Shown piece after piece: positions 54,239 through 57,949 of a stretch of 64,000 bases of DNA; position 1 is the stretch's first letter; every line of letters starts with the position of its first letter. The position numbers and the translations under genes were made by a program. The notes beneath the pieces are model-generated. The model did not search any database and was not told the origin of the DNA. It was given only the letters and a program-made list of their open reading frames with translations. This DNA comes from an uncultured virus (IMG/VR IMGVR_UViG_3300013121_000030) (lineage: Duplodnaviria; Heunggongvirae; Uroviricota; Caudoviricetes): positions 32,001-96,000 of IMG/VR virus record IMGVR_UViG_3300013121_000030, one strand, 5' to 3'.

Positions 54239-54465
54239 TGTGGCTCCTCTCCTCCACGAGTGTAGCACGCCAGAGGACGAGTTACACCGGATTCAGTATC
54301 CCACTCTTCCCCACATCGTCCGTAAGTGTAAGAGTCCCCACATGCAGTGCAGCGATAAGCCTTTTTTCCCCCGCGCGTCCCGTCTGGGACCACCCCTCCT
54401 CGATGACACACGCGACAAATTGGCCTTGGCTGCTTCTTCAGGGGACTTTTGCCACAATTTTCCAT
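54205..54465 (-). CDS. Small zinc-ribbon protein
   Basis: CRVC...YRCTACG; its 3' end overlaps the promoter and the next gene. Confidence 0.4.
   Translation of the reverse strand: MENCGKSPLKKQPRPICRVCHRGGVVPDGTRGGKKAYRCTACGDSYTYGRCGEEWDTESGVTRPLACYTRGGEEPQWANTLKRSST
54259..54286 (-). promoter_or_regulatory. Conserved phage promoter (TGTAAC-N16-TACACT)
   Basis: Motif copy. Confidence 0.75.
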
Positions 54466-55067
54466 GAGGAGCCTTTTCGAGCGGTCGTGATGTGGGAGAA
54501 GTGGTGTTCAAGCTCGTGAATCAGTTCAGGGATGGGGTGCCACTGAAACAGTGTAAAGTCGACCCCATCCAAGATTCTCAACTGCATGTGAAAAACTCGT
54601 CTGCCAACATATCCGGAGGCTTCGACAAATCTGTGGCCGTTATAGGTGTAGGTGTGCCACCCCCACCTAGGATGATCGAAGGTATTGAAAACGAATCTCC
54701 CTCCAGGGCGCAAGATCCGAGCGACCCTGGGGAAGACTTTCTTCAGGTTGAGGTATCCGATGGATTGCCTGCACGCGACCACATCGAATTGGGACTCACC
54801 TTGAAGTTCTTCGGCGGATGCGCGACGAGCTTCAAAGCAAGGAGACAAGAGATGGCATCGGGGATTGAGATCCCGAAGGACAACACGACTGGCTCCCATT
54901 TCCAGAGCTTGACGGGACAAGACTCCCGTGCCGCCACACAAGTCCAGGACCGCCTCACCGGGCTGGAGTGCCGCGAACTGAAGAAGGCCGTCCTTTCTAT
55001 CAATCCACCGCTGGTAGAGGGAGGTGTAATTGTCTGTCGTGCAGTTAAACATCAGAGTTTTGGCCAA
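54438..55067 (-). CDS. Class I SAM-dependent methyltransferase
   Basis: VLDLCGGTG, FDVV, RILRPGGRFVF. Confidence 0.85.
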   Translation of the reverse strand: MAKTLMFNCTTDNYTSLYQRWIDRKDGLLQFAALQPGEAVLDLCGGTGVLSRQALEMGASRVVLRDLNPRCHLLSPCFEARRASAEELQGESQFDVVACRQSIGYLNLKKVFPRVARILRPGGRFVFNTFDHPRWGWHTYTYNGHRFVEASGYVGRRVFHMQLRILDGVDFTLFQWHPIPELIHELEHHFSHITTARKGSSWKIVAKVP

Positions 55068-56167
55068 GTGGACTCGTCGGCCGACAAGGCCGCAACAAAT
55101 CCGTGTCCTTGGATGTTGAAGATAGGCGGGAGAGGGTCACGATGTGAATCTCTCACTGTTCCTGGTGGAGCATAAGGCAACGTTGGAACATTGGGAAGCT
55201 GGACATGGAGGTGAAGGACAGCCTCAGCCCAACGGTGGGTGAACAACATCCGAACCAAGAGGGGCGCATTGAGGCTGGCTTTTTCGAGCCCCGCCAACAG
55301 AATGCTCTTCCCAAGAAGGGCTGTGTAAACAGCATTTGCGCTCGAAAAACCTGGGCCCTTCTTTCGAGGAGAGATGAGAGAGCAGGCGTATCCCGCACGG
55401 ACTGCAATAGACCCGAAGACTTGCTCGGGAATCCCCAACACAGTCCCCGTGAAAAAGTTTCGATAGTGATTCGCAAGGCGGTCAAACAACACGACCGAAG
55501 ATTCTTGCACTGTGGCTGTCCCACAGTCTGTGGTTGAGGAAAAATGTTGGTCCTCAATCACCTGGACAATCTCCTCCAGAAATGCAGGATCACCAACCTC
55601 AAAGGGCATAATCGTGCCATCTGGAAATACCAGTGACTTCTTTTTGAGGGCAGCCAAATCATTGGCGACCACACAATGACACTTGGCCCTCAGACAGACT
55701 CCGTAAGCAGCCTGGAGAGTCTGATCCAGAGAAGAACCTGAAGTCATCTTACACCCAATGAGGTGCATCTTCGGATTGATCCGCCGCATCTCATCAATGA
55801 CATGGGGAGCAAGGATGAATGGAATCAACATCCGTTCACCAACTCCCACAGTGAGCATCTTGCCGTGGAAGGGAGTTTCAGGAATCCAGTTGACGACGGC
55901 GGCTGCCATGACCGCAGCATCGAGAGTGGGAGCCAGCTCCCTACACTTGGCCTGGTAGTCCCAGAACCCATTGTGACGAATGACCTGGACTCGTTCGGGA
56001 GGGACAATTCCTGGGATGTCCGGAATCAGAAAGATGACTTCATGCCCGCGATCCCGAAGCAGCGAGGCAAGGTGCGCTGCCCAGATCCCGCGGGATCGGT
56101 TGCCGACGAGCTTGTTGTCATCCAGCTTCCCGTAGACAGCGCCTGCTGTGATTAGGATTCGAGACAT
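55052..56167 (-). CDS. CoaB-like (phosphopantothenate-cysteine ligase fold) domain fused to a class II aldolase-like domain
   Basis: ILITAG, NRSRG, MAAAV, LIGCK, VVANDL; C-terminal GSIAVR...LISPR...KAS...VLHLH. Confidence 0.7.
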   Translation of the reverse strand: MSRILITAGAVYGKLDDNKLVGNRSRGIWAAHLASLLRDRGHEVIFLIPDIPGIVPPERVQVIRHNGFWDYQAKCRELAPTLDAAVMAAAVVNWIPETPFHGKMLTVGVGERMLIPFILAPHVIDEMRRINPKMHLIGCKMTSGSSLDQTLQAAYGVCLRAKCHCVVANDLAALKKKSLVFPDGTIMPFEVGDPAFLEEIVQVIEDQHFSSTTDCGTATVQESSVVLFDRLANHYRNFFTGTVLGIPEQVFGSIAVRAGYACSLISPRKKGPGFSSANAVYTALLGKSILLAGLEKASLNAPLLVRMLFTHRWAEAVLHLHVQLPNVPTLPYAPPGTVRDSHRDPLPPIFNIQGHGFVAALSADESTWPKL

Positions 56168-56173
56168 GGGGTT

Positions 56174-56830
56174 TCATCCTTTGCGGAGAGACTCCGAAAT
56201 TTCCACAGCCACCCGAAGCGGGGCCAAGTTGGCTTGCGAGCCTATCTTCCACCAGATCTCCTGAAGGGGGAATCCCAGGAGAGAAGTGGGATCTTTGATC
56301 TCCCCCAGATTTGTGACCCACGACTGGACCACTGGCTCCGATATTCGGAGCGACCCGGCGCAATCGGAAGGATTGCACGTCTGGATGTACTCCATCGCCT
56401 CCCACGGCGAGATCTTCCGCATCTTCATCACTTCCGTGAAGACGAAAGATTGCCCTCCAACCCGCACCAACTCTCCTCCGCTCGCATTGCTGAGGATTGT
56501 GACTCCAGTGGACGACATCACCTCCTTTCCTGACATGGCGAGGATGTTGCTCAACATCCCATCAGGAGTCGGCTCCTTGTGGAGAGGCTTGCCTTCCACA
56601 GAGATCACCTGGTCGCAGGTGAGAATGGCATCCTCGTCGCCGAAACGAGCCACAAGTTCGAGCCCCTTCATGAGGCTCAGGAACTTGGGGCCCTCAACCA
56701 CAGGATCCTTGAGGAGGACATCCTCATAGGCTCGCTCATCGATTCGGGCACCTTCTGCCCTCCAAGGATCCAGGAAGATCTGCCTGAAAAAGTTGATGCG
56801 GTACTTGGATGTGGTTCCGAGGATGTACAT
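56174..56830 (-). CDS. Maf-family nucleoside-triphosphate pyrophosphatase
   Basis: ILGTTSKYR, IDE, LTCDQV, K.P, SGK, DCAGS, LLGFP. Confidence 0.8.
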   Translation of the reverse strand: MYILGTTSKYRINFFRQIFLDPWRAEGARIDERAYEDVLLKDPVVEGPKFLSLMKGLELVARFGDEDAILTCDQVISVEGKPLHKEPTPDGMLSNILAMSGKEVMSSTGVTILSNASGGELVRVGGQSFVFTEVMKMRKISPWEAMEYIQTCNPSDCAGSLRISEPVVQSWVTNLGEIKDPTSLLGFPLQEIWWKIGSQANLAPLRVAVEISESLRKG

Positions 56831-56883
56831 GAGTTCTCAGGTCCCCCGTGATTACGGGGGAGCATGGACGATAAGGTGGCTGG

Positions 56884-57031
56884 GAATAGATCCCCGCCTT
56901 CGCGGGGGAAAGTCCCTCTCGACAGAGACAGGGGCACCACGGGGGGGAAGATCCCCGCGTTCGCGGGGGAAGGCATGCTCAGAAATCACACTAACCCTGT
57001 TACCCAGGAAGATCCCGAACGCGAGGGAAAG
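56884..57031 (-). CRISPR. Type I-E-like CRISPR mini-array: 3 repeats (one degenerate) and 2 spacers of 32 bp; no cas genes in the window
   Basis: Repeats at 56884-56912, 56945-56973 and 57006-57031 with an exact 61-bp period; - strand middle repeat CCTTCCCCCGCGAACGCGGGGATCTTCCC. Confidence 0.75.
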
Positions 57032-57032
57032 C

Positions 57033-57407
57033 TCAGGACAGAACCGCAGACCCCACCGCAAGGTCCACGAGACGCTTGTGGGGGTCCAGGAGGCGGACGG
57101 ACTTGCCGTCCACACGGACGGTGAAGCTCTCATGGAGTTCGTGGGTGATGATCTGCTGGATGGCCAACCACGCCGTGAACACCACGGACTCGATGGAGGC
57201 GGTGGAGGCCACGAACCACTTGCGCCCATAGCCAATTCCGTATTCAGAAGAGTTGGCATCCGGCCGCTCGAACGAGCACTGGATGTTCCATCCCACCTGC
57301 TCATCATCGGAAGCAGGCTGGATGCGCCATTGGAAGCGCCACTCCTCGAATCGAGTGGCGCGCATTTCGATCCCAAAAAGGATCTCATGGAGTTCGTTCT
57401 GGATCAT
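57033..57407 (-). CDS. Conserved phage hypothetical protein (GRKW...HE..E.F...PH type)
   Basis: GRKWFV, SVVFTAWLA, HELHESF, DPH. Confidence 0.7.
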   Translation of the reverse strand: MIQNELHEILFGIEMRATRFEEWRFQWRIQPASDDEQVGWNIQCSFERPDANSSEYGIGYGRKWFVASTASIESVVFTAWLAIQQIITHELHESFTVRVDGKSVRLLDPHKRLVDLAVGSAVLS

Positions 57408-57420
57408 AGTATCCCTTCAT

Positions 57421-57879
57421 TTAGCGGAGAGCCCGCCGCATGAACACCAGCAACTGATTCTCATCTAGGTGCAGGAGAATCTTTAGGGCATTCTGGTGGG
57501 CCCGAAGCTTCTTAGCCTTGCGGAAGACCGCCCGCATCTTTCCCATCCTCAACGTCGCGGCCCAGTTTGATGCTACAGCCTCATGGATGAGGAGGAGGAT
57601 GCGGGTGTTGGGCACCCCAAAGTAACGGAGCGCAACCACTTCCGCCGCCAATGTCTGAAGTTCACGGGCAGGAGCAAGCCGAGCAAACTTGCCCAGACAT
57701 GTCTGAGCAGCATCTGCTGACCACGAATCTGAAGAGAGCGACACTCCGCCAGCCACAAGATGGAGCCCCTCATGCAGAATAGACTCTGCAAGATTTCTCC
57801 CTTCCGTATCCATGAAGGTGTAGGTAGAGATCCCCCGATCCTCCATGAACTCCTCCAGTTTCTCTTCGGTCGCCCACAT
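57421..57879 (-). CDS. Hypothetical protein with an HExxH motif
   Basis: LHEGLH plus a downstream E; ATG 6 nt after the promoter -10. Confidence 0.55.
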   Translation of the reverse strand: MWATEEKLEEFMEDRGISTYTFMDTEGRNLAESILHEGLHLVAGGVSLSSDSWSADAAQTCLGKFARLAPARELQTLAAEVVALRYFGVPNTRILLLIHEAVASNWAATLRMGKMRAVFRKAKKLRAHQNALKILLHLDENQLLVFMRRALR

Positions 57880-57885
57880 ACTTCT

Positions 57886-57913
57886 AGGGTAGCACCTTGA
57901 TTCTCATGTTACA
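57886..57913 (-). promoter_or_regulatory. Conserved phage promoter (TGTAAC-N16-TACCCT)
   Basis: Motif copy. Confidence 0.75.
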
Positions 57914-57914
57914 C

Positions 57915-57949
57915 AAAGAAAAGGAGGGCTGGATATCCAGCCCTCCTTT
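57915..57949 (-). terminator. Rho-independent terminator after DUF932
   Basis: 30-bp perfect palindrome at 57920-57949 ending in a T-rich run on the - strand. Confidence 0.75.

Follow-up and report, generated by a model that had tools for sequence, protein, structure and literature searches.

The DNA examined here, a 64,000-nucleotide (nt) stretch (the window) corresponding to bases 32001-96000 of the 234,244-bp IMG/VR record IMGVR_UViG_3300013121_000030, carries within an operon a short array of repeats and spacers in the format of type I-E CRISPR. The array is contained in the 202-nt gap between ORF124 (ORF, open reading frame) and a maf-like gene and lies on the minus strand, which is the coding strand of the operon. 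In our judgement the locus is very probably CRISPR-derived, and we propose, with a probability of about 0.5 for the mechanism as a whole, that it supplies guide RNAs to the Cascade complex of its host; transcription, processing, loading, targets and host are elements of this proposal that we infer. The source, a jumbo phage of ~234 kb that has not been cultivated, comes from samples of wastewater and aquatic origin; its GC content is ~55%, and CheckV puts the completeness of its record at ~90%.

Read along the minus strand, the array comprises the following elements.

57006-57031, minus strand: psiR1, a degenerate 26-nt repeat, CTTTCCCTCGCGTTCGGGATCTTCCT, with a 3-nt deletion inside the hairpin
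56974-57005, minus strand: spacer S1, 32 nt
56945-56973, minus strand: R2, an intact 29-nt repeat, CCTTCCCCCGCGAACGCGGGGATCTTCCC, made up of 5 nt + CCCCGC GAAC GCGGGG + ATCTTCCC
56913-56944, minus strand: spacer S2, 32 nt, the only spacer between two intact repeats
56884-56912, minus strand: R3, an intact 29-nt repeat, CTTTCCCCCGCGAAGGCGGGGATCTATTC, made up of CTTTC CCCCGC GAAG GCGGGG ATCTATTC, with a counterpart (Rb) in a related phage
56865-56883, minus strand: a 19-nt short spacer-like segment, CCAGCCACCTTATCGTCCA, with 16 of 19 positions kept in the relative
56836-56864, minus strand: psiR4, a repeat-like hairpin, TGCTC CCCCGT AATC ACGGGG GACCTGAG

The first element, psiR1, begins 1 nt after the ORF124 stop codon and matches R2 at 21 of 26 positions, with an identical 3' GGGATCTTCC. 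In a predicted fold, the last codons and stop of ORF124 (GUCCUGAGC) pair with the 3' half of psiR1 (GUUCGGGAU) at 57023-57040 (minus strand), giving a 9-bp hairpin across the stop codon that replaces the repeat hairpin. The period from R2 to R3 is exactly 61 nt; the starts of psiR1 and R2 are 58 nt apart because psiR1 has lost 3 nt inside its hairpin, and their 3' ends keep the 61-nt register. The exact 61-bp period given in the initial annotation of this DNA thus stands for R2-R3 and fails for the starts of psiR1 and R2, and the letters and coordinates that it gave for repeats and spacers are exactly those of the sequence. The interval between R3 and psiR4 is only 19 nt, and psiR4, which has the 5 + 6 + 4 + 6 + 8 layout of the repeats, ends 5 nt before the maf ATG; the 19-nt segment and psiR4 are additions to the layout first described. 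The type I-E format recognized at the outset (repeats of 29 nt with a CCCCGC-N4-GCGGGG hairpin and a tail of 8 nt starting AT, and spacers of 32 nt) was confirmed: R2, R3 and psiR4, together with the repeats Ra and Rb of the related phage, have a GC-rich stem, a 4-nt loop and an 8-nt tail beginning AU, psiR1 being degenerate, and the lengths of S1 (32 nt) and S2 (32 nt) and the R2-R3 distance (61 nt) agree with spacers of ~32 nt in a 61-nt period.

This pattern is not the product of chance. The 22-nt repeat core occurs twice, against 0.00 expected from shuffled sequences, and the repeat was found nowhere else in the 234-kb genome. Sites of the form CCCCNN-N4-NNGGGG with complementary arms number seven in the whole 234-kb genome, three of them within 125 nt at the array; random genomes of the same composition hold ~1 such site on average.

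Bacterial arrays of comparable build were sought in one genome per species (185,579 species). The exact core followed by ATCT was found at 46 places, nearly all of them single hairpins and two of them true arrays, both with a 61-nt period: one in an Acidobacteriota metagenome-assembled genome (MAG), GTCTCCCCCGCGAGCGCGGGGATCTGCCC, in which one copy has the GAAG loop of R3, and one in Clostridia bacterium DTU025, GTCTCCCCCGCGTGCGCGGGGATCTACC. A scan with a looser core recovered, from Sphingomonas, Thiobacillaceae, Anaeromyxobacter, Polyangiales, Parvibaculum, Caldilineaceae and others, dozens of long arrays that have the consensus G[GT]CTCCCCCGC[GA]CACGCGGGGATCGACCC and a period of 61 nt. The 29-nt repeat and the 61-nt period of the phage array recur in the bacterial arrays whose core is TCCCCCGC-N4-GCGGGGATC. 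Cas6e (PF08798) was present in all five tested genomes with such arrays, and lay within ~1 to 8 kb of the array locus in all four for which the coordinates could be compared. The repeat class is therefore type I-E by association, an assignment that applies to the class and not to the phage repeats themselves, which share with true I-E repeats their length, stem, loop size and AUC handle start. A scan specific to the handle gave mostly single hairpins among the matches listed, and one for Ra-type repeats gave a single two-repeat match (a Methanospirillum MAG) and otherwise singles.

The same searches brought to light a look-alike that bears on a different explanation, in which the phage hairpins have nothing to do with CRISPR and are intercistronic stem-loops, be they mRNA stabilizers resembling repetitive extragenic palindromic (REP) elements, processing sites or attenuators of maf, and their 61-nt spacing is a coincidence. 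Among the single matches, several small alphaproteobacterial MAGs stood out, in which CCCCGC-GAAR-GCGGGG with ATCT after it forms a dispersed element of REP-like character, TTCCCCGCGAARGCGGGGATCT, with ~95 copies on both strands of G004 (the genome of L002, a MAG labelled Micavibrio aeruginosavorus) and ~71 copies on both strands of G001 (the genome of L179); both are small (2.2-2.3 Mb) alphaproteobacterial Micavibrio-like MAGs, and no Cas6e was detected in them. Over the 25 positions that are conserved in this element the phage repeats show 2-4 differences from it and 2-4 from true I-E repeats, so that it is about as close to them as the latter. GC-rich genomes commonly contain such hairpins singly, psiR4 lies within the 5' untranslated region of maf, the searches described below found no target, host or cas gene, and with very many DNA windows surveyed some coincidences are to be expected. 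The arrangement, however, is not that of the phage. Nearly all REP-like copies are paired in convergent inverted orientation, 25-45 nt from each other, and lie in intergenic DNA that is richer in AT (examples L280-L291), their sequence is variable beyond ATCT and direct 61-nt repeats were never seen in the clustered cases inspected. Although its 22-nt core is nearly the same, the phage shows neither the dispersal nor the inverted pairs of REP and REPIN elements: it has a single locus in which all copies are direct, with a 61-nt period, 29-nt repeats whose flanks are conserved beyond the stem and inserts of 32 and 32 nt (32 + 9 in the relative). None of R2, R3 and psiR4 scored as terminator-like (a T-run after the hairpin), and Ra of the relative is different yet equally I-E-like. 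Because the clustered REP copies inspected are all inverted pairs and the phage copies are direct, we retain non-CRISPR hairpins as an unlikely rival and not as the best explanation. A match to a dispersed REP family had been named in the initial annotation as grounds for abandoning a CRISPR array; such a family does exist in the Micavibrio-like MAGs, as inverted pairs and not as direct 61-nt copies.

A CRISPR origin gains further weight from a related phage, represented by L050 and L051, contigs from different public sequencing runs that are identical across the array region and were obtained solely through the 90% cluster of ORF124. The relative keeps the regions equivalent to 56406-56910 and 57032-57374, and the 121 nt between them are replaced by 82 other letters. 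After the ORF124 TGA it has 13 nt, Ra, a 41-nt spacer, Rb, 19 nt, psiR4, 3 nt and the maf ATG, as follows.

Ra: TACTT CCCCAC AAAC GTGGGG ATTGGCCG
Spacer, 41 nt (L050:1115-1155, identical in L051): ACTGCCCAA three times, then ACTGCGGCGGCCGT
Rb: TCTTC CCCCGC AAAC GCGGGG ATCTCCCC
19-nt segment: CCTGCTACCTAATCGTCCA, 16/19 identical to the window
psiR4: CCCCGT GATC ACGGGG ATACGAGA

Nucleotide identity between the window and L050 is 93% in ORF124, 81% in the trailer from R3 to the maf ATG, 76% in maf and 66% in ORF152, the gene on the other side of ORF124. Divergence is mosaic, with ORF152 at 66% (95 of ~152 amino acids) set against 93% in the adjacent ORF124 and 91.5% at the 3' end of the DUF932 gene. 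Because the trailer aligns and the stretch from the stop codon to R3 cannot be aligned between the two, R3/Rb, the 19-nt unit and psiR4 are orthologous, and the promoter-proximal repeat-spacer cassette has been exchanged. Ra is a different but I-E-like repeat (CCCCAC/GTGGGG), and its handle ends in CCG like that of E. coli-type repeats. Without a CRISPR origin, the exchange of one well-formed I-E-like unit for another would be difficult to account for. Ra and Rb are too different from each other for a simple Cas1-Cas2 insertion with duplication of the repeat, and recombination with another array is the more likely source. The 41-nt spacer equals 32 nt plus one extra copy of the 9-nt unit ACTGCCCAA, which suggests a slippage expansion inside the spacer.

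Further relatives did not emerge from a protein search of IMG/VR with Maf and ORF124, nor from Joint Genome Institute (JGI) metagenomes searched with ORF124; a set of 5.8 billion proteins held no homologue of this Maf, and a DNA-pattern search of IMG/VR and the JGI metagenomes found neither the relative's spacer nor the conserved trailer. ORF124 homologues at 55-70% identity stand in other contexts, without an array. In public runs from aquatic, wastewater and activated-sludge samples, parts of the array region are present, in small shares only. One of these sequences, a 221-nt contig from a wastewater metatranscriptome library (run X13; window 56776-56910), has the relative's form and runs from the start of maf through Rb into the spacer; it is a weak hint that the start of maf and the array are co-transcribed, since such a contig shows neither strand nor ends and may stem from DNA carry-over.

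The relative also allows the hairpin itself to be assessed. In an alignment of the six intact copies (R2, R3 and psiR4 of the window and the three copies of the related phage), all form a 6-bp stem with a 4-nt loop, and stem positions are paired in 100% of cases, compared with 36-56% in controls with slid partners. Two pair changes are compensatory: in Ra a G-C pair has become A-U, and in psiR4 a C-G pair has become U-A. With six sequences the evidence is modest; it points to a hairpin that has been maintained. These data also bear on the possibility that the locus has no function and is what is left of a decaying host type I-E array, gained by illegitimate recombination and drifting neutrally in an intergenic gap. 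The degeneracy of psiR1, the mutual differences among the four repeats, the 9-nt slippage expansion in the relative and the absence of any detected target would all be expected of such a remnant. Neutral drift would not be expected to keep the stem by compensatory changes in every copy but psiR1, the locus has persisted in two lineages whose neighbouring genes stand at 66-76% nucleotide identity, and the cassette of the relative has been replaced by another well-formed repeat-spacer unit and not merely eroded. We therefore regard a remnant as improbable.

The phage appears to encode none of the machinery that such an array would need. No match to Cas6e, Cas7e, Cse1 or Cas1 was obtained at E <= 1 in the whole record, in a search whose controls detected the I-E-specific families only in Thermus (an imperfect sensitivity) and Cas1 widely; the absence of cas genes first remarked upon for the window thus extends to the rest of the ~90% complete record. 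The locus, with two spacers in a virus without cas genes, accords with the usual description of a viral mini-array (one or two spacers), and CRISPR machinery would therefore most likely be borrowed from the host, as is known for other viruses. According to the mechanism that we favour, the array would be transcribed as part of a polycistronic mRNA that starts at a promoter-like motif at 57914-57890 and covers ORF152, ORF124, the array, maf, the coaB-like gene and a methyltransferase gene. In a type I-E host, Cas6e would cut at the 3' base of the intact hairpins (R2, R3 and perhaps psiR4), releasing one canonical 61-nt CRISPR RNA (crRNA) composed of AUCUUCCC, S2 and the R3 hairpin, and also a crRNA-like RNA of ~48 nt composed of AUCUAUUC, the 19-nt segment and the psiR4 hairpin. 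S1, lying behind the broken hairpin of psiR1, would probably be a fossil or be poorly processed. The released RNAs would be loaded into host Cascade. The supply of guides would be the main role, the variable 32-nt spacers acting as interfering guides against competing mobile elements and the conserved 19-nt unit as a regulatory guide of the Cracr type (see below), with competition with host crRNAs for Cas proteins as a side effect. In addition, cleavage of the Cas6e type would break the transcript just 5' of maf, as had been reasoned in the initial annotation; the mid-operon position of the array supports that reasoning.

Matches to S1, S2 and the relative's spacer were sought in several sets. 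The phage's own genome holds none at <=9 mismatches, so that the lack of a self-match remarked upon earlier is borne out; none was found among 50,697 isolate phage records, in IMG/VR (searched with exact seeds of 20-21 nt in which each sixth base was left free) or in the relative's contigs and ~290 further loci. The relative's spacer does not match the window phage and the window spacers do not match the 2.7 kb of the relative. Spacers that are both invariant across relatives and without targets had been put forward as a sign that the array does not supply guides. They are targetless in all of the sets searched, but they are not invariant: L050 and L051 carry a different cassette between conserved flanks.

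Spacers that are free to vary and lack targets could also be filler, as they would be if the locus were an RNA anti-CRISPR decoy of the Racr kind, in which the repeats bind host Cas6e and Cas7e in dead-end complexes and the spacers are irrelevant. Racr RNAs and solitary repeat units (SRUs) are repeat mimics of phages (Camara-Wilpert et al. 2023, PMC10651486) and are widespread among them (PMC10651486). The locus resembles them in that a phage lacking cas genes encodes a mimic of a CRISPR repeat hairpin, one that could titrate Cas6 and Cas7; its repeats are imperfect mimics and not copies of any known array, and the hairpin is kept by compensatory changes while its flanks drift. Racr candidates are, however, solitary by definition, with no other repeat within 100 bp, and SRUFinder discards full repeats that are clustered within that distance (PMC10651486). 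Here three to four repeats lie in phase, with spacers, within 200 nt, and the SRUFinder rules would therefore class the locus as an array. Filler, moreover, need not be exactly 32 nt twice, nor 32 + 9 nt in the relative, and SRUs often stand right behind a predicted promoter of their own (PMC10651486), whereas none is present at the array. A decoy is thus, to our mind, a rather doubtful explanation.

Guide supply to host Cascade has closer parallels. Viral mini-arrays with one or two spacers and no cas genes are known, for example, in the Saccharolobus portogloboviruses SPV1 and SPV2; they usually carry repeats identical to those of the host, and most of their spacers match related viruses (PMC11656645). 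The phage array is like them in having two spacers in a virus without cas genes, repeats in the format of a bacterial subtype (I-E) and a spacer content that differs between close relatives (here L050/L051 and the window), and differs from them in lying mid-operon with no phage promoter motif to itself. The type I-E Cracr arrays have 2-3 spacers, with short psiS of 21-24 nt and imperfect psiR (PMC11656645; bioRxiv 10.1101/2024.10.29.618823). In the Salmonella prophage arrays CracrIE1/2, with psiS of 24 and 21 nt, short-spacer Cracr RNAs repress casA, and Cas6e processes poorly a psiR that has lost 1 nt (Liu et al., bioRxiv 10.1101/2024.10.29.618823). By definition, Cracr spacers share at least nine matches proximal to the protospacer-adjacent motif with the spacer portion of host CreA/CreR crRNA-like RNAs that target cas or toxin promoters (bioRxiv 10.1101/2024.10.29.618823). 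The phage array shares with them the absence of cas genes, a phage location, 2-3 spacers, psiR elements some of which have small deletions, and a short spacer, here the conserved one of 19 nt; a shortened spacer flanked by a psiR is found in the unit formed by R3, the 19-nt segment and psiR4, which is conserved in the relative. It differs in that two of its three spacers reach the full 32 nt, a length at which interference, and not repression alone, would be possible.

A number of observations weigh against guide supply. S1, S2 and the relative's spacer have no protospacer in any set searched, and no host was identified by repeat match in the scans of species-representative genomes. Viral mini-arrays usually have host-identical repeats, whereas those of the phage are 5-6 mismatches of 29 away from the nearest cas-linked consensus, and it is chiefly the 5' flank, the loop and the 8-nt handle that depart from it. 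The four phage repeats also differ mutually at 5-12 of 29 positions, a divergence not seen in repeats that have just been duplicated, and are thus near-identical neither to one another nor to a known cas-linked array. The degenerate repeat is the promoter-proximal one, the reverse of normal arrays, and the 41-nt spacer of the relative is off the 6-nt increment of Cascade. The same hairpin with a GNRA-like loop is the REP-like element of some alphaproteobacterial MAGs, and the two bacterial arrays with the exact core (L014 and L042) have no cas gene in the retrieved flanks and no detectable Cas6e in their MAGs. The Rfam CRISPR-DR models gave no significant match on the crRNA strand, a result that is uninformative either way because the true arrays L042 and L014 are likewise unrecognized.

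Huge phages with CRISPR arrays were reportedly described by Al-Shayeb and co-workers in 2020, and many of them are said to encode Cas proteins of their own. The present phage is like these in being a metagenomic jumbo phage of >200 kb with CRISPR components, and differs in that no Cas protein was found in its ~90% complete record. Mini-arrays and repeat decoys of viruses are already on record, as are CRISPR components in jumbo phages (PMC11656645), and the array opens no new category. What is particular to it is that it lies mid-operon, that it mixes full-length with short units and that its repeats diverge without giving up the hairpin. If the array does work with host Cascade, an environmental jumbo phage would join those viruses that encode no type I-E machinery and borrow it instead, and one operon transcript would contain full-length guides, a short guide of regulatory type and a worn repeat. 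Such a locus would be a compact test case for the divergence of repeats that Cas6e and Cascade tolerate, and its repeat could help to predict the host of this uncultivated phage.

The array sits in a unit with the following features.

57920-57949, minus strand: terminator-like hairpin with a 13-bp stem and a T-rich tail, closing the upstream DUF932 unit
57890-57914, minus strand: bipartite promoter motif GTGTAAC-N12-GTGCTA, the presumed start of the array-bearing unit, kept in the relative at L050 177-201
57421-57879, minus strand: ORF152, of unknown function, the first gene of the unit, 66% nucleotide identity to the relative
57033-57407, minus strand: ORF124, a conserved 124-residue phage protein with 56 homologues and a weak match to phrog_1540, 93% nucleotide identity to the relative; TGA stop at 57035-57033
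56174-56830, minus strand: maf-like gene (PF02545, 2.2e-19), directly 3' of the array, ATG at 56830
55052-56167, minus strand: CoaB/DFP-like gene of the array-bearing unit (PF04127, 6.6e-20)
54438-55067, minus strand: S-adenosylmethionine (SAM) methyltransferase gene, the last of the unit
54263-54287, minus strand: next copy of the promoter motif, the start of the following unit

The phage promoter-like motif, RTGTAW-N13-GTGYTA, is strongly over-represented: the window has 13 matches where 0.24 would be expected, and these are often a few bases 5' of an ATG. The copy at 57914-57890 lies directly 3' of the hairpin at 57949-57920 and 11 nt 5' of ORF152, and no copy is present between 57890 and 54287, so that the array has none of its own. 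Because motif copies flank them at 57914-57890 and 54287-54263, we infer that ORF152, ORF124, the array, maf, the CoaB/DFP-like gene and the methyltransferase gene form one unit, in keeping with the operon location originally assigned to the array. The relative has a second copy of the motif directly 5' of ORF124 (L050:662-686), which the window lacks at the corresponding place (~57408-57440), and the transcription unit that contains the array therefore differs between the two phages. In the window, the ATG that lies near psiR4, upstream of maf, is in a different frame from that gene. A coding explanation for the array was rejected, the ORF124 frame and its stop being the conserved ones; the overlapping ORFs of 178 and 216 residues that run across the array have no family matches.

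This arrangement leaves room for a more elaborate version of guide supply, to which we attach only a low probability: a composite, operon-embedded guide cassette in which promoter-proximal 32-nt interfering guides can be swapped, a 19-nt Cracr-like regulator is fixed and the terminal hairpin abuts the start of maf. Cleavage by host Cas6e would then both arm Cascade on behalf of the phage and separate expression of maf, the coaB-like gene and the methyltransferase gene from that of the upstream genes, making the metabolic operon of the phage a sensor of host CRISPR status.

In other phage contigs (L047 and L048), members of the ORF124 family lie 3' of three Amidoligase_2 genes and 5' of a nucleoside 2-deoxyribosyltransferase-like gene, a context that hints at some function in modifying nucleotides or DNA.

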